Notes: a model not told the origin generated them from the letters alone. Counted from the whole stretch's first letter, positions 4,980 through 52,328 are shown. The stretch: 61,447 nucleotides of DNA, filler included, from Basidiobolus ranarum (GCA_040143965.1; 4 parts of 4 records of this genome joined end to end with filler, not necessarily neighbours in it); one strand, 5' to 3'. Numbers and translations are program-made.

Positions 4980-7900
4980 TATAGCCAAGAGTGCATCGCA
5001 AATTTTGCTTCCAAACTTGGTTGACTCTGTCTGTTTGGCTATGAGATTGATGATAGAAGGTTGTGGAGAGATTGGGAGTGATACCCAAGGTTTGGAGAAA
5101 ACTTTTCAAGAATTTGGAAGCAAACTGAGGTCCTTGGTCTGAGAAGATAGCTTTGGGGAGTTCATGTAGGAAGAAGATATTTTGAGATATCAATTCTGCT
5201 GCTTGTTTGCATCAATTGACTTGTTGGAGGGCACAAGGGGGGCCATCTTTTATAGACAGTCAACATTTACCAGAATTGAGTCATATTTGGCAGACAAGCA
5301 TAGATCAGTGATGAAACATAGGGATATGGATTTCCACTGCTGATAATGGATTGGAAGTGGCTGTAGGAGGCCGTAGGTCTGATATCTGGAGTTTTTGCTC
5401 AAGCACAAGTATCACAGATGGAAACATACGCCTTAACAAATGCAAGCATTCTGGGCCACCAATAATACCCAGATGCCAACATATGTGATTTGGCAATACC
5501 AAATTGTCCTGCAATTGGTGAGTCATGTTGTTCCTGCAAGTATGTGAATCTGGAAGGGTGGTATGGGATGTAAAGCCTCTTCTGATAAAACAAGAGATTG
5601 TTGATGATGGAGAAATGGGGGTACATGTTCAAGCTTGCAAGGCCTTTGGGTGTATCCTGGGCTTTCCTGATTGATCTAATCAATGGGTCTTTAGATTGAA
5701 GTGTACAGAGGTCTTCCTGTAATGTGCTTAAACTTGGCAGAGAAAGAGCAGTTGCATTGATTTGAAGTTGGTAGGGCTTCAGTAGGGAAGTGTTTTTGGT
5801 GGCCACAGGCCTCATCCCCTTCTTTAGGCTCATATTCTGCTCTACATGATAAGTCATTGGGTTTTCCTTGTTGGCTACCTGGTCAATGTGTAATCACAAA
5901 ATCAAAACTGACAAGAATGATGACTATCTAGCTTGATGGTTGTTGAGAACTTTGGTTATACTAAAACACTCAAGATTCTAGTGAACTCAATAGACCACAA
6001 TTATGTGACATGCTCCATTCAAGTATTGTCACCATTGTTCAAATGCAGCAATAATTGCCAACAGTTTGTTGCCATAGATGTCATAGTAGATTTCTGTGGC
6101 ATAGTACTTTCTTGAGCAAAAGGCAACAGGGTGCAGTAAGCTGACATTACTGTATCATGATAGTATTGCTCCTAAAGTAAAGTCAGATGCATCAGTCTCA
6201 ACAATGAGTGGCTTGTCTAGCTAGGGGTGTGCCAGGATTGATGCTGAGGTAAAAGCATTCTATAAGGTTACAAATGCTTCTTGGTAAGATATGGTCCAGT
6301 TAAATGGGAGCACTTTCTTGGTAAGGTTTGTTAATAGGGCTGATATATAGCAGTAGTTCCTGACAAACCATTGATAAAAATTTGCAAATCCAAAAAGATA
6401 TTGGACATCTTCATATTCTTGGGAGTAGCCCAAGACAGAACAAATTCAATCTTCTTGGGGTACACAGAGATGCCCAATGCGCTGATGCTATATCCAAGGA
6501 ATTTAGCTTGAGCTTGGTCAAATTCACATTTCTCAAGCTTAGCATAGAGACAGGAGGTTTCCCACTTTTCCAGGACTTGGGAAGCATGAACATTATGTTC
6601 TTATTGAGAGTTTGAGAAGACCAAGATAATATCAAGGCAGATTACCACAAACTGGTCAAGATACTCTCTGAAGATATCATTCATTGTGTGTTGGAAGACT
6701 GCAGGGGCATTGGTAAGTCCAAATGGTGAGACATTATATTCAAAGTGTTCATAGCAAGTTCAAAAGGCAGTTTTCCATTGGTGTTCTGGTTTGATTCCAA
6801 CAAGATTGTAAGCATCTCTTAAGTCAATCTTTGTAAATATCTTTGCAGCAGCAAGTGAATCCTATAGCAAGTTAATTAATGGAAAGCGGTACTGATTTTT
6901 TACTGTAATGCTATTTGGGCCTGGATAAACAACACAGAGATGGAGGGATCCACCCTTTTTCTTAAAAAATGAGATTAGAGAGCCTGCTGGAGACTTTGAA
7001 TGTTAGATAATCCTTTCTCCAGCTTCTCTGCAATATACACTTTTGGAATGTTATGTTTAGGCTGGGTCAGTCCCAAGATTGGTCCAAATGGAAGTTGTCT
7101 TTCTTCTTGTAGATCTCTATGGCCATCATATGGGTGGTGAGTTGGGAGAATATTGAATTTCTTTTTTTCAAAGACATTGGCAGAGGCTAAGAGTTTGGTG
7201 CATGTTTAGGAATTATAGGTTTTGTTGGTTTTGGCTCTTCAGCAACACTGTCAATGGATATTGGCTTCATAGATATTTTGAGGATTTGAGCTGATGATGA
7301 GTCAGATACTTTGCAGATTGACAAATATATGCTAAATGGTGGAGCTTGCTTGAACATGATGATCTTCTTCTTCCAGTTGATTACTGGATTTTGCTGCATG
7401 AGCAATGAGATACCATGGATGACAAGATGGTGAAGTGAAGAAATGATGTTAAAGGCTTTTTCTTCTTGATGAGTAGTGGATAAGAGTGTCATAAAGGTTG
7501 TCTCATGTGTTACAGCACCTGATGATAGCAGCCACCCATCAATTACTTCAACAAAGACTGGCCGAGATTTCTTGATTATTGGGATTGAGTGGGAGTTGAC
7601 AAAGGCAGAGTCACAAAGACAGGAGGAAGCACCTGAATCAAAAAGTGCAGTTGTTTTTATTGACTTGGAACTAGGTAGCAGGAGTGTAATGGGCAGCTTT
7701 AATGATTGGTAAGACTGCAGAGATTGCAATATATGATGAAGAAACATTTTTGAAGATGGTTGGCCCAACTGCATGCCCATTATTGCAGCTAGGCATTGAA
7801 GTTTTCTGATGGTTGAGGACAGTTCTCTTCTACTTGCACTTTGTTGATCTTAAATCCAGGATTTTTTTTTGGACAGTGTCTGGCTACATGTCAAGAAGCT

Positions 7901-36102: not shown

Positions 36103-39100
36103 ATGAACCGATTATTCGAATCTAGTTGCGGTAACTTTCTTACCAGTAAAAATGGTAGAGGACTCTCTTCAGATATTTCACGATTCTCTCCTGGTGAGTG
36201 GGTCGAAATTAAAGACCCACAAAGTACCGAGATATATTATGCTAATCCAGTAAGTGTCCCTGTAACTACTATGGCGGATTCTGACGAGATTGTGCTTATC
36301 CAACTAATATTTAACCTTTTTATTGTTAGCTTACTGGGGAGTGTGCTAATAAAATCCCTTTGAATGCTAAAATGTAAGAATATTTTTATTTCAATGCCAC
36401 TTTTATGAATCTAGAGCTTCCGTTAACTCATCTGTTTCTTATAGACATCCCAGTGATCCCAACGGAGAGTGGTGGGAGCTTTATGACGAGCAGAACGATC
36501 TAAACTATTATTATAATACACTTACGAGCCAGACTGAATGGATTAGACCAGATACGGGGCTTATTGTGCCTTTGGCAACAATTCAAGTATACACATTGTT
36601 ACAATTTTTGTACAAAGTAATACATAGTACTAAGGTCATTCATTTTGATCTGGATAGAATACCGCGATGGGACGTAGAGTTTCGATGGTATTAGCAAATA
36701 GAGGCTCATTAATCTTAGCAACAAATGGAATCAAGCCTCCGGAGTCTGAAGGCGAGAAGAAACCTGGGAGCTCAGCTTTTTTATTAGGCAATAATAACAA
36801 CCAAAATAATTCTAACATCGATGAGCTTACGGAAGCAACACCGCCCCTATTAAGAGCATCACAGGTTGGTTTTTAATGTTTCAACTGTCTCTGTCCGTCA
36901 TTGTTTTCTTTTCTTAAACTTGTATAATAGTCCGCTGCACCTGAATCATCAAATCTGAAGAGGCAGGATAGCCGCTGGTCAGTCTCTGCAGGTATTACTG
37001 AAACTTCTGACAAAGATATCCAGAGTTTCAGTGAGACTTCGTCCAAGATTTTGGAGTGCCCGATGATTCCTCTCGAATCTCGGGAGGAGATCCCCCAAGG
37101 GCCATCCAGCTCAGGTATTCATTTATCTCTGTATAACATGTTGTATGAATATCTCCTTATTTTGAAACTACATCCAGCCATTTCCAATTTCACTCCACAA
37201 ATTAACAACAACGATGCTCCCCTCCCTCCTGCTGGGAAAGAACGAGCCTCTGCGTCTTCTGTTAAGAATGATAATTATATGTAAGAGTTGCTGTTATGGT
37301 GCTGATCTTATGGAGTGCTTACCGCGACTATATCTTCTTCTTTAGTCCTCCTACTCTCCCACCACAACTTTTAGAGGAGATGAATCAATTTCAAATCGAT
37401 GGATTTTCTCCAAAGTACTTTGCTGTGCATAAAAAAGGAATTTTCAGAAGAAAGGTGTCCATGGAGAAACTTTTACAATGGTCCAAGGTAACGGTAATAT
37501 TCAAATGACGGATTATGGATAGTTATTTATCAGAAGTGAGGTGTTTTGATTAATTTGTAAATAGGACTCTCTAAAGCAACCTTTATTGATCTTGAGCAAA
37601 CCGGTTCAAAAAGACGCGTTAAAGTGCTTTAAAAATATCCTTTTAAGACGAATTTGGACTTATTTTATGACTTTGATTCCATTATTCCTTAACTCTTTTT
37701 TACTCATTCAGAAGATTATGGGAGATCGAGCTTACATACTAGGTTCTTCTCTCAATAAAGACACTCAGTGGTTGCTTGATAGAGGCATAGTGGAGGGTGA
37801 ATTGAGAGATGAAATTTACGTTCAGCTATGTAAGCAGTTAACACATAATCCTAGTAGGTAAGACAAAGCTCAAGTAATTCTAAATTATTTCCAAGTATTT
37901 GATAATCGGTAGTAACCTCTCTCTATAACAGCCAAAGCCTTTTCAATGGATGGCAACTCATGTGTGTACTAGCAGTTACATTTCCTCCATCACGAAATTT
38001 CGAAAAGTACATGCAAAACTTTGTCAAGGCACATTTTGATATTCAACAAAGCAAAATCAATATACTTTCCAAGCATGCTCACAACAAATTACTAAGAATC
38101 TCCAAAAGTGGGCCTCGTGGAAAAGTCCTCACTAATGAAGAGATCGAACAAGCCAAAGTAAGTATCCTGAGAAATCCAATTTATCTTGTTTGATTTAACC
38201 CAAACTATCATCTTACAGGAATCTGCTTTTCATCCTACTGTGTTTGGAGAGTCTTTGGAGTATGTGATGCAAATGCAGGCTCAGACGCATCCAAGCTTAC
38301 CATTGCCTAGGATTCTACTGTTCCTGGCGGAAAGTGTATTGAAGTTGGATGGTCAAAAGTCTGAAGGTATTTTTCGTCTTTCTGGTGACCCTGAGGCCGT
38401 AACTTCACTGGTAACATCCAAAGCGTTTGATCTCCGTTTTATAAGCTCTCTAACCTCAGTATATTTATTTAGCGGTTGAAAATTGAGAAAAGTAAGTATT
38501 CTAATGCACATTTGACTCACTTGGTTTGTAACCATGCCTAAGATTTGCTTAGATCAATACGATATTCAAGGGATCACTGATCCAAATGTACCCTCTTCTC
38601 TGCTGAAGTTTTGGCTTCGTGATCTAGCAGAGCCTTTGATCCCTGCGAAGTATTAATATCCTTTTTCATACGAGCTTCAGTTATTCATCATCAATCCAAT
38701 ATGCTGCCCTATTAACCCTTAACTGAGGCTTACCGATATGTGTATTCAAAGCGCAGAGAATCCCCAAGAGTCGGTGGAGATCATTGAAAAGCTTCCAGAT
38801 ATCAACCGGATTGTCGTTCATTTTACGCTATATTTTCTACAGGTATAGTTATCATTCGGTCATGATAAACCTGTCAACCACTAAATATCTTTTGATTAGT
38901 TGTTCACTACAAAAGAGGCTATGCTTCATACAAAAATGACGGTAGCGAACTTGGCCATGGTATTTGCACCCAATTTTCTAAGATGTCCAAGTGAGAACTT
39001 GAACGAAATCTTTGAAAAAACTCGACATGAACAAGCGTTTGTTAAAACTTTACTAGCACATATGAAACCTATATCTTCCATTACATTAAAATCCATTTTT

Positions 39101-39103
39101 TAA
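36103..39103 (+). CDS. WW-WW-MyTH4-RhoGAP protein (ARHGAP39/Vilse-like), many exons, two AT-AC introns
   Basis: WW: EWVEIKDP..YYANP and EWWELYD..YYYN..TEWIRP. MyTH4: ELRDEIYVQLCKQLTHNP, GWQLM..TFPPS. RhoGAP: EGIFRLSG, LLKFWLRDLAEPLIP, KMTVANLAMVFAPNFLR. Confidence 0.92.
37635..37703 (+). other. U12-type AT-AC intron (69 nt)
   Basis: 5' ATATCCTTTT, branch TTCCTTAAC (37685-37693), 3' AC. Removal gives KCFKIIQKIMGDR. Confidence 0.93.
38656..38733 (+). other. U12-type AT-AC intron (78 nt)
   Basis: 5' ATATCCTTTT, branch ACCCTTAAC (38715-38723), 3' AC. Removal gives EPLIPAKYYDMCI. Confidence 0.93.
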
Positions 39104-41304
39104 TATTGGTTTCCTTCTAAAATAAATGTTGCTTGTATCCTCCACTTTTCCGTACGTTTGTAAATTGAAGCAATTCCTATGTATTGTGGTGAAACTCCTC
39201 ATTCCCAATTCAAACTTGGTATCTGAATCATGCAAGAATGACAACTTTCTAAAGTTGCGTATGTAGTGGTGGCGGAAGTAATGGAAGTGTATGCCATCAC
39301 CAAGTATCTCAGTAACTTTGGTTTACTCTTGACTACACTGGCTATACACACTGAAAAACAAGGTTCATTTCGTGAAAGATATGTCAACCATAGTAAAGTG
39401 ATCCAATAGATCCTAAGAGGAAGCACCACTTTCCTATTGCCATGAAGTTATCAGCAAGACACGGTGATAATAAGCCAGGGCCAAATCTCTAATTTTTAGG
39501 TTTTAAGTTTATTTATGAATTTCTTGGTCTACTCTTTAAAGTTTGCACTACGTCATCTTATTTGTTTTAATCTCAGGGAACACCGTAGAATCAACCATAA
39601 TTGTCACGAATTACGATGAAATATCTTGTGTACGCTTAACTGTCCACAATACCCAAGAATGTGTTTCTGTAATTATGAGTGAGAGAGAACGTTTTCAGGT
39701 TAGCATTGTAGCTTGGTGCACTCATAGAAGAGTGACTTCTAGCTCTAGCTGGTTATCGGTCCAGACAAAGGCCTCGAAGATAACGAGGTTATTATAATGT
39801 GAACAAAGCATCCTCATCAATCAACACCTATGACACAATCGTGTAGTGCGATGATATTTCAGTACTTAATGCTACCATGCAGCCTGTTACCGGTTGGATG
39901 TACACCAGCAATGACAATACTCGGCATCACTTGTTACGTAACAATTTAATGATAAGCCAGTATTTCACTAAATTAGAAGTTCTCGTATCGTGTGTGTATG
40001 TGAAATGCATAGTCGGTGTACCAGCAGCAGACTCATTCCAGTTATTAATACGCCAAATCTTAACCTACTTTGGAAAGAAACCTACCATGCTATCCGAGAA
40101 CCCATAAAGCAGGACTGTGAAAGTGCAAGTACAAGCCGAAATCGAGTCAACCACTATCCAAAGCCACATGTTTTGAAGATTGAGAGAATGGAAAGGAGCT
40201 TTCAACACCGTTCCGTCGACCAAATACCTATCCAGTACAGCTCTCATCTCACTGGTAAATTTCCAGCCCTGAGGGGAACAAGAGGGGTGCGATGGAAGAG
40301 AATCGGTACTAAGCCCATTTTGTCAATAATCAGAGACCTATCCTAATTATAGCGTAATGTCTTGACCTCATGGCTGTCAGGATATGGTAGATTGCATCTC
40401 GATTTCCAACGACAAAACAGTGAAGTTTTGGACAAAGAGTAAGGATCCTCACGATCACGAAATAAGTTGAGCTCCTACGAACAGACTGGAACAGGGCTGA
40501 TATGATTTCGACGAATCAACTAGCTTACCTAGCGAGAAGCACCAATTGAGTACCCTCATCATCGGTTATCATATGATCTGATAATCCCGATTAAGTGACA
40601 TCCGACATTCAAATCCTGGATGTTGCTCAAATCTTTCCCACATATATCATTTGTTTTCAGTTGCTCTAGAGAACCTTTCTGATGGGCCCGTGTAGGTTTG
40701 TCTTTCAGAAAATCGCTTACTGCTTAGATGTCGTATGTACCTAGAAAGTCTTGGCACTGATAAAGATCTCTTTCTGCATACTCTTCTGAAAGGATATGCT
40801 TGAATGGGCTGTTCGACTGAGCAACAGTACAATGGTTTACTATTCCAGACTCAGCACAGAGCCACAATCGCAACAAAGATGAAAAAAAGCCGCTCAAAGG
40901 GCACAGATAGAATACGTGATCCAACACCCTCATGTGAGCTGTGTTTCAATCACATATTATATGTACTCTGTGACCTGAAACGACCATCAACTTTAGTCAA
41001 TCGCCACCAAAAAGGTATAGAAATGGGACGATGACCGGTTAAAAGATATTTATAGTATGAAGCCAGATTCCTTACGACTCATTGTTAAGTAATGTCAGTC
41101 TTACCACAGTATATGGGATATTCACTCAGAGAAAAATTGTTTTGGAAGTTTGTGCGACAAATACCTGTTCATCGAACTAGGAGACAGAGGGGATGGTGAT
41201 GGAGTCGGATTCCTATAAATACTTGCATTTGACATATCCCTATAATCATAATCAGCCATTCACTACTTTTCTCTTAGTAAAGCTCTCCGTACATATTAAA
41301 CACC

Positions 41305-50882: not shown

Positions 50883-52328
50883 ATGGTAAAGTAACTTCAT
50901 TCATGATACATTCAATATCTCGTAGAATCTCTACATTTCTTACACCTTTCTATTCCAGTATGGAACCAATCGTAACGGCAAAGAGGTCCCAGCTGATGCT
51001 TTTTGGGATGAGGTAAATTCATGGTATAACTGCTTGATACCTGGAAGGGATTCCCTTATCAATTAATTTGCTCGTCGATTTAGTATTCAAGACTTGATAC
51101 GACCATTCAGATGATAGAGAATCATGTGAAAAGCATCGAGGGAATCCGTTCACAGATGTTGGAGACACTCTCCGAAGCTGAACAAACTCGTATCCTTTTT
51201 TATTAAGCTAGGAATATAAGCCTAAATTAAGAAATCTCTTCTCTTTAACTCAACCATGTTTAGAATACTCGAAAAGGTTGAATATTTTGGTGACAGAAAC
51301 CTCACAAATGATGATGAACGTGAGAAGTAGAATTCAAGGTAGTTCATTAGGTATTCCAAAATGTTGAGCTGAACACTGAGTGACACATTTCGCTTGTATT
51401 ATTTAGCAATAGAAGAACTTACCAGGGATCCATCTACCGCTCCAGCTAATTCGAAAGCGTTCCGTAACCGCGTAAGCAGTATATTTATCTCTTGTTCCAT
51501 CTTATCCTCTAATTAACACGTATCTCTTTCTTTGCTGTAGCTTTTGGGACTTCGCGAGAAACTAAAAAATGCATTACTAGAGTATCAGAGGATACAACAC
51601 AAATACGATGAAGAACATAAAGAAACCATTGTTAGACAGTATGAGATTGGTAAAGAGTACTATTGAATTATCAAACCAAACCAATCGCAACTGAATGATT
51701 TTCCCCCTTAGTTAACCCAAATGCCACCCCGGAAGAAATCGATACCATGCTAAATGATTCAGACTATCAGCAAGTTTTCGCACAAGCGGTAAATGACAAG
51801 TTCAGCTAATTATATAGATATACAGACTTCCTCATCAGAATCTTTCGTAGGTTCTTCAGAGTAACCGTAAGGATCATGCAATTCGTGTATTGGAGGCTGT
51901 ACAAAGTAGAGATAAAGATATTCAAAAGATTCATGACAGTGTTCTGGTAGGATGACAATTGCTATGAGTTCGAATAGTGCTCGGATTCTGACCTCTCCCT
52001 TTGATCAAATAATATAGGAACTGGCTCAACTATTTCAACAAATTGATCTAATGATTGAAAACCAAGGAACTGTCATCGTAGATATTGAAAACACAACCGA
52101 ACAAGTGGTAGAACACCAAGTAGAAAGTCAGAAAGTCCTGGACCAAACTGAAGGAATATTAAAGAAGATCCGACAGGTACGCTACTCATATCTGAAAGTA
52201 AATGCGTGCATGTAGCTAACTTTTCTTCCAAGAAAAAACTGATCCTGTTGAGCGTCGCCTTAATCATCGTCATATTGGTCATTGTGACGGTGGTCCTCCT
52301 CACTAGGCCAAACACTGCTAGTTCATGA
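50883..52328 (+). CDS. Syntaxin (Sso-type) paralog 2, divergent, with one U12 GT-AG intron
   Basis: First coding exon is apparently ATG only. RQYEIVNPNATPEEID; VQSRDKDIQKIHDSVL|ELAQLF..ENQG; TM anchor. Intron positions match paralog 1. Confidence 0.88.
51190..51263 (+). other. U12-type GT-AG intron (74 nt)
   Basis: 5' GTATCCTTTT, branch CTCTTTAAC about 15 nt before TAG. Removal gives SEAEQTQYSKRL. Confidence 0.88.

Follow-up and report, generated by a model that had tools for sequence, protein, structure and literature searches.

A probable U12-type AT-AC intron within the RhoGAP domain of an ARHGAP39-like gene from the Basidiobolus lineage

Background

The highest proportion of minor introns reported among fungi is that of Basidiobolus meristosporus, for which Larue & Roy (2023, PMC10639083) give 0.554% of introns as minor (n=249) and Girardini et al. 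(2024, PMC11347168) count 237 minor introns (0.5%), the latter survey also describing genes for U11, U12 and U6atac together with a putative divergent U4atac. In the former survey, minor introns are described as biased away from phase 0, minor-to-major conversion is treated as the usual direction of change and a low ancestral density of minor introns is reconstructed for the Zoopagomycota. Both minor introns and their high density in Basidiobolus were already known before the present analysis.

The consensus of the U12-type 5′ splice site is /ATATCCTT, and a minority of introns with AT-AC termini is excised by the U2-type spliceosome. Slow minor splicing as a possible limit on gene expression is a concept that is established or has already been proposed. 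A literature search found no paper that combined “ARHGAP39” with “minor intron”.

Here, we investigated an ARHGAP39-like RhoGAP gene in a window of 61,447 nucleotides, which is the whole stretch of DNA that was analysed. We consider it highly probable that positions 38656–38733 of this window form a functional U12-type (minor-spliceosome) AT-AC intron, for which support comes from its signals, the reading frame, the conservation of the residues that are joined and positional counterparts elsewhere.

Results

An ARHGAP39-like gene with two probable AT-AC introns

The gene was modelled by tblastn of the B. meristosporus protein K493DRAFT_336817 (P0001) and by reading the splice sites in the DNA. 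The features referred to below are as follows.

36103–39103, plus strand: host gene with 15 exons and 14 introns, CDS of 2046 nt, product of 681 aa
37635–37703, plus strand: intron 8, AT-AC with U12-type signals, 69 nt, phase 1, in the MyTH4 region (KCFK|IIQK)
38553–38655, plus strand: exon 13, encoding ...QYDIQGITDPNVPSSLLKFWLRDLAEPLIPAKY and TA, the first two bases of a split Tyr codon
38656–38733, plus strand: intron 13, AT-AC with U12-type signals, 78 nt, phase 2, from direct sequence reading and the gene model
38656–38664, plus strand: 5′ splice-site motif ATATCCTTT of intron 13, fitting the U12-type consensus /ATATCCTT
38716–38723, plus strand: branch-site motif CCCTTAAC of intron 13, with the presumed branch A at 38722 (second A of TTAAC)
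38734–38842, plus strand: exon 14 (36 aa), the first base C finishing the Tyr codon, followed by DMCIQSAENPQESVEIIEKLPDINRIVVHFTLYFLQ
38650–38727, plus strand: rival GT-AG intron (GTATTA...CTGAG), 78 nt, yielding AKLTDMCI and judged unused

The reading frame contains the terminal stop only and shows no other defect across the 15 exons, which are separated by 12 GT-AG introns (57–80 nt, all ending in TAG or CAG) and two AT-AC introns (8 and 13). The predicted protein has the domain order WW-WW-MyTH4-RhoGAP and is 75.6% identical over 681 columns to K493DRAFT_336817 (662 aa), its orthologue with the same WW, MyTH4 and RhoGAP domains, and 72.5% identical to the deposited B. ranarum protein K7432_002844 (P0002; 562 aa). 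When the exon upstream of intron 13 was used as a query, two proteins were returned, both from Basidiobolus and both at 89% identity, while the last exon (67 aa) was 88% identical to B. meristosporus; the best matches in two protein searches with exons from the window reached 89% identity at most. Pfam placed WW at residues 30–53 (1e-07), MyTH4 at 348–451 (1.2e-31) and RhoGAP at 494–625 (4.9e-28) of K493DRAFT_336817, and on the exons of the window it recovered MyTH4 (8.9e-16) and a C-terminal RhoGAP fragment scoring 24.3 bits (cut-off, 24.5). The predicted catalytic Arg finger (GxFR) lies in exon 11 (EGIFRLSGD), and R507 of K493DRAFT_336817 is invariant across an alignment of 40 homologues.

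Two further observations concern the gene and its relatives. Within the RhoGAP domain lies a micro-exon of 19 nt (38473–38491, plus strand; RLKIEK+1), flanked by GT-AG introns of 62 and 61 nt, which is required for the frame and matches K493DRAFT_336817 (LRLKIEKNQY); the metagenomic locus L071, which is described below, has no introns at the two positions bordering it. A pair of Basidiobolus paralogues, B. meristosporus K493DRAFT_250939 and B. ranarum K7432_008395 (P0153 and P0154), shows 68–71% identity to the window across the last exon.

Signals of intron 13

Direct reading of the DNA reproduced exactly the limits 38656–38733 given for this intron in the preliminary description. Exon 13 ends in GAG CCT TTG ATC CCT GCG AAG TAT TA and is followed by the intron start ATATCCTTTTTCAT, so that the layout is TA | ATATCCTTTTTCAT...CCCTTAAC (38716–38723) TGAGGCTTAC | C GAT ATG TGT ATT. 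In the DNA read over 38200–39200, the opening is ATATCCTTTT (in a longer reading ATATCCTTTTTCATACGAG), the closing stretch is CTGCCCTATTAACCCTTAACTGAGGCTTAC, and the terminal AC occupies 38732–38733. For the branch site we looked for a TCCTTAAC-like motif about 10–15 nt from the 3′ end and lacking a polypyrimidine tract: CCCTTAAC agrees with this consensus at 7/8 positions (its first base is C, that of the consensus T), the presumed branch A and the last intron base are 11 nt apart, and the spacer between the motif and the 3′ end, TGAGGCTTAC, has no polypyrimidine tract. This combination of ATATCCTTT, CCCTTAAC and a terminal AC bears out the claim that the RhoGAP domain contains an AT-AC intron carrying the full set of U12-type signals. 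U12 dependence does not follow from AT-AC termini by themselves, and the intron might be genuine yet excised by the major (U2-type) spliceosome; we give this almost no weight, since a 5′ site, ATATCCTTT, that is not compatible with U1, a CCTTAAC placed 11 nt from the 3′ end and the lack of a polypyrimidine tract are all hallmarks of the U12 type.

With the putative minor intron removed, TA|C forms a Tyr codon and the joined reading is EPLIPAKYYDMCI. With it retained, the reading is TAT TAA, an immediate stop, and the product has 577 instead of 681 aa, as expected from the earlier suggestion that retention truncates the GAP domain: the 104 C-terminal residues that are lost make up about half of this domain, its C-terminal half, and the Arg finger (GIFR, exon 11) is kept. 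Such a product, ending in ...PAKY without half of the GAP domain, or a gene in decay, would be expected if no splicing took place here. Read-through does meet TAA immediately and the B. ranarum annotation ends at the same point, but the two downstream exons are open and conserved (88% identity to B. meristosporus in the last exon, with the RhoGAP C-terminal motif) and the 15-exon model has no other defect, which makes an unspliced gene extremely unlikely.

Choice of junction in the RhoGAP domain

The residue created by the AT-AC junction corresponds to Y559 of K493DRAFT_336817, in the middle of its RhoGAP match, and falls in the motif P-L-I-P-x-x-[FLY]-Y-x-x-C-I. From 202 family members that were fetched, 199 could be aligned, and in the split-codon column 195 of them carried a residue, which was Y in 189/195 (the remainder being H 2, S 1, E 1, F 1 and M 1, with T 0). 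The preceding column (n=196) is more variable, with F 53, L 51, Y 27 and M 17. K493DRAFT_336817, compared as a protein only and with its intron types presumed, reads unbroken across both AT-AC positions, with KCFKIIQK at intron 8 and AEYYDMCI (...EPLIPAEYYDMCI...) at intron 13.

We listed all GT/GC-AG pairs whose use would take out the stop, preserve the frame and bring in no new stop. There were 25 such alternatives, 24 of which delete conserved residues, and 38650–38727 was the sole length-preserving one. Transcripts that use other GT-AG sites sparing the GAP frame had been named in the preliminary description as what would speak against the AT-AC intron; at the sequence level, the conserved Tyr is retained by none of the 25 in-frame, stop-free pairs.

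One competitor is a GT-AG intron at 38650–38727 that the major spliceosome would use instead, giving ...PAKLTDMCI.... It is in frame, stop-free and of the same length as the AT-AC intron, the Leu that it places at the first of the two junction positions is frequent in homologues (51/196), and the full-length identity to K493DRAFT_336817 is nearly equal (75.3% vs 75.6%). However, it exchanges the near-invariant Tyr (189/195) for a Thr that was found in 0/195 sequences, and the K493DRAFT_336817 model has YY at the junction. Its acceptor is GAG, whereas 12/12 GT-AG introns of the gene end in TAG or CAG, and its sole branch-like motif (TTAAC) lies only about 4–5 nt before the AG. It would also leave unexplained the coincidence of ATATCCTTT, CCTTAAC and AC, which is expected about 0.005 times per window. 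We therefore regard its use as very unlikely and retain the AT-AC junction, which yields the near-invariant Tyr that the GT-AG rival destroys.

Chance expectation and other U12-like introns in the window

By itself, the octamer RTATCCTT shows no excess over chance in the window, with 8 matches over its whole length against 6.26 expected, a number reached by 28/100 shuffles. A strict composite was defined as ATATCCTT, CCTTAAC within 150 nt and AC 10–13 nt past the branch A. It has two matches in the window, 37635–37703 and 38656–38733, both on the plus strand and in the same gene; among 1441 dinucleotide-preserving shuffles (mean 0.0049) one match occurred in 7/1441 and two in none. The composite U12 signal is far above chance. 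Under a looser composite there were four matches (500 shuffles gave 0.59 on average and never more than 3), namely the two AT-AC introns, 51190–51263 (plus strand) and 47776–47496 (minus strand).

The match at 37635–37703 is intron 8, which opens with ATATCCTTTT, has the branch motif TTCCTTAAC and ends in AC 10 nt after it; the view that the gene contains a second AT-AC intron is upheld by it. The phases of introns 13 and 8 (2 and 1) agree with the avoidance of phase 0 described by Larue & Roy (PMC10639083).

The match at 51190–51263 (plus strand) is a U12-like GT-AG candidate of 74 nt in phase 1, reading GTATCCTTTT...CTTTAAC followed by 14 nt that end in TTTAG. Its excision leaves one frame open (...IENHVKSIEGIRSQMLETLSEAEQT|QYSKRLNILVTETSQMMMNVRSRIQG) within a coiled-coil-like ORF that, by eye, looks like the N-terminal region of a syntaxin or t-SNARE. 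At the level of motif plus frame, this candidate and the two AT-AC introns together support the earlier count, for the window, of three U12 introns. The fourth match, 47776–47496 (minus strand), was rejected as a U12 intron on account of its non-coding context with stops in all frames, and the RTATCCTT sites at 2326 (minus), 18451 (plus), 21563 (minus), 40790 (minus) and 47769 (minus), which have no usable branch motif or coding context, were attributed to chance. Intron 10 of the host gene (38158–38218, plus strand) has a strong major-type donor at its 5′ end (GTAAGTATCCTG) that overlaps a near-U12 5′ motif (GTATCCTG) offset by 4 nt, with TTTAAC about 19 nt before the AG, and is probably an ordinary U2 intron. 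A search of the whole window with Rfam gave nothing at gathering score and no minor snRNA.

Introns at the corresponding sites in other lineages

When metagenome contigs were scanned with a profile built from 40 homologues, 80 loci were returned. Some part of the GAP region was matched by 77/80, and 74 had an alignment spanning the intron 13 junction, of which 61 were continuous, 10 had small stop-free indels nearby and three (L068, L069 and L070, identical there) had a stop-containing insertion. The site is intronless in 71/74 spanning loci, an absence that says little at the continuous loci because many of them may be cDNA or derive from intron-poor Dikarya. The insertion in L068–L070 is a GT-AG intron of 57 nt (7009–7065 in L070) in the same Tyr codon and phase as intron 13, with the spliced reading ...PNDLYSDAI....

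In locus L071, which is not among the 74 spanning loci, an AT-AC intron of 145 nt (429–573) has a codon position and phase identical to those of intron 13, the only other lineage with AT-AC termini there among the 80 loci. It reads TTA TA|ATATCCTCTTT...TTTCCAC|T GCT, with the 5′ site ATATCCTC and the end CCAC, and gives ...PLNLYAEAI... (DPIIPLNLYAEAI) when spliced; since no GT precedes its in-frame stop, no GT-AG solution is available. It differs from intron 13 in that CCTTAAC is 31 nt from the 3′ AC, with an alternative A at 24 nt, both beyond the usual 10–15 nt. L071 also shares the positions of introns 10 and 14 with the window, whereas it has no intron 11 or 12. With about 51% identity between its exon and the protein from the window, L071 is clearly not Basidiobolus; identity was at most 60% to any protein returned by the search (chytrids, Basidiomycota and Glomeromycota among them) and 65% over one exon to Fonticula alba (local blastx). 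Its source may be a holomycotan-like organism.

A further contig, L060, is arthropod-like by best match, with 59% identity to a EukProt protein and about 50% identity to ARHGAP39 of insects. Its GT-AG intron (5974–6107) is located 6 nt, i.e., two codons, downstream of the intron 13 site and in the same phase, which could be the result of sliding, of realignment after conversion or of an independent intron.

The intron 8 site was spanned by 66/80 loci, 36 of them continuous and 30 with gaps or stops, and its DNA was read for the gapped locus L059 and the non-spanning locus L029. L059 has a GT-AG intron of 84 nt (957–1040) that coincides with intron 8 in both position and phase (KLFT|MIQSYMGD vs KCFK|IIQKIMGD), and the proteins that it matches best come from amoebozoan transcriptomes (Rhizamoeba, Pyxidicula).

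Probable truncation of the deposited B. ranarum model

The deposited K7432_002844 model stops at ...EPLIPAEF, which is exactly the position of intron 13. We infer that this end reflects a GT-AG-only gene predictor that failed at an AT-AC intron, and the model is probably short of about 100 RhoGAP residues for this reason. GT-AG-only predictors will truncate this RhoGAP at intron 13, as appears to have happened in K7432_002844, so that gene calling in genomes of the Basidiobolus type has to take U12 introns into account.

Discussion

In the mechanism that we propose, U11 and U6atac would recognise /ATATCCTTT of intron 13, base pairing between U12 and CCCTTAAC would leave the branch A at 38722 bulged out, and cleavage after the AC at 38733 would create, from TA|C, the codon for the near-invariant RhoGAP Tyr. 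Because an unspliced intron 13 would bring in a stop at once, with the loss of 104 residues, productive GAP expression would depend on the minor spliceosome, at intron 8 as well as at intron 13. As the preliminary description proposed, the rate of minor splicing could conceivably limit the amount of GAP that is made. The act of splicing, the U12 dependence and any regulatory role are what we infer from the signals and the frame.

That the unrelated contig L071 shares an AT-AC intron with the window in exactly this position and phase, and that a GT-AG intron occupies the site in a further lineage, makes the position of intron 13 probably old. For both introns 8 and 13, the existence of counterparts makes an old origin likelier than a recent gain, and the GT-AG counterparts fit minor-to-major conversion. 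Going further, both AT-AC introns may be remnants of very ancient minor introns in the ARHGAP39 family that were already present before Basidiobolus diverged from the other Holomycota (for intron 8 perhaps also before the split from Amoebozoa) and that were elsewhere deleted or converted to GT-AG. The AT-AC intron of L071 and the GT-AG introns of L068–L070 at the intron 13 site, together with the GT-AG intron of L059 at the intron 8 site, point in this direction, and we advance the idea tentatively, as possible but somewhat short of an even proposition. If it is true, at least part of the exceptional minor-intron load of Basidiobolus would represent retention and not gain, which would be in mild tension with the low ancestral density that Larue & Roy (PMC10639083) reconstruct for the Zoopagomycota. 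With two AT-AC introns and counterparts of both types elsewhere, the gene offers a small, clean test of retention versus gain, and it is also a test case for minor-to-major conversion in early-diverging fungi.

The host protein resembles metazoan ARHGAP39 (Vilse/CrossGAP/Porf-2) in its order of domains, WW-WW-MyTH4-RhoGAP, and in the conservation of both the GIFR Arg-finger and the [FLY]-Y-x-x-C-I motifs, and insect proteins named ARHGAP39 were among the homologue matches. It differs in size, with 681 aa compared to about 1000–1200 aa in animals, and the one arthropod-like genomic contig (L060) has no intron at the intron 13 site, its GT-AG intron lying 6 nt downstream.

The closest known system remains that of B. 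meristosporus, whose U12-type introns are of the same class as intron 13, similarly short and from the same or a sister lineage, as judged from best protein matches to Basidiobolus at 88–89% identity in single exons. With identities of 76% and 72%, however, the window comes from neither of the two annotated Basidiobolus proteomes that were recovered. The preliminary description had proposed an unusually high minor-intron density for a fungus; this is true of the lineage, and it loses its novelty in that the published surveys (PMC10639083, PMC11347168) already report it. Intron 13 is a sound yet ordinary example from a lineage that is already in print for its many minor introns.
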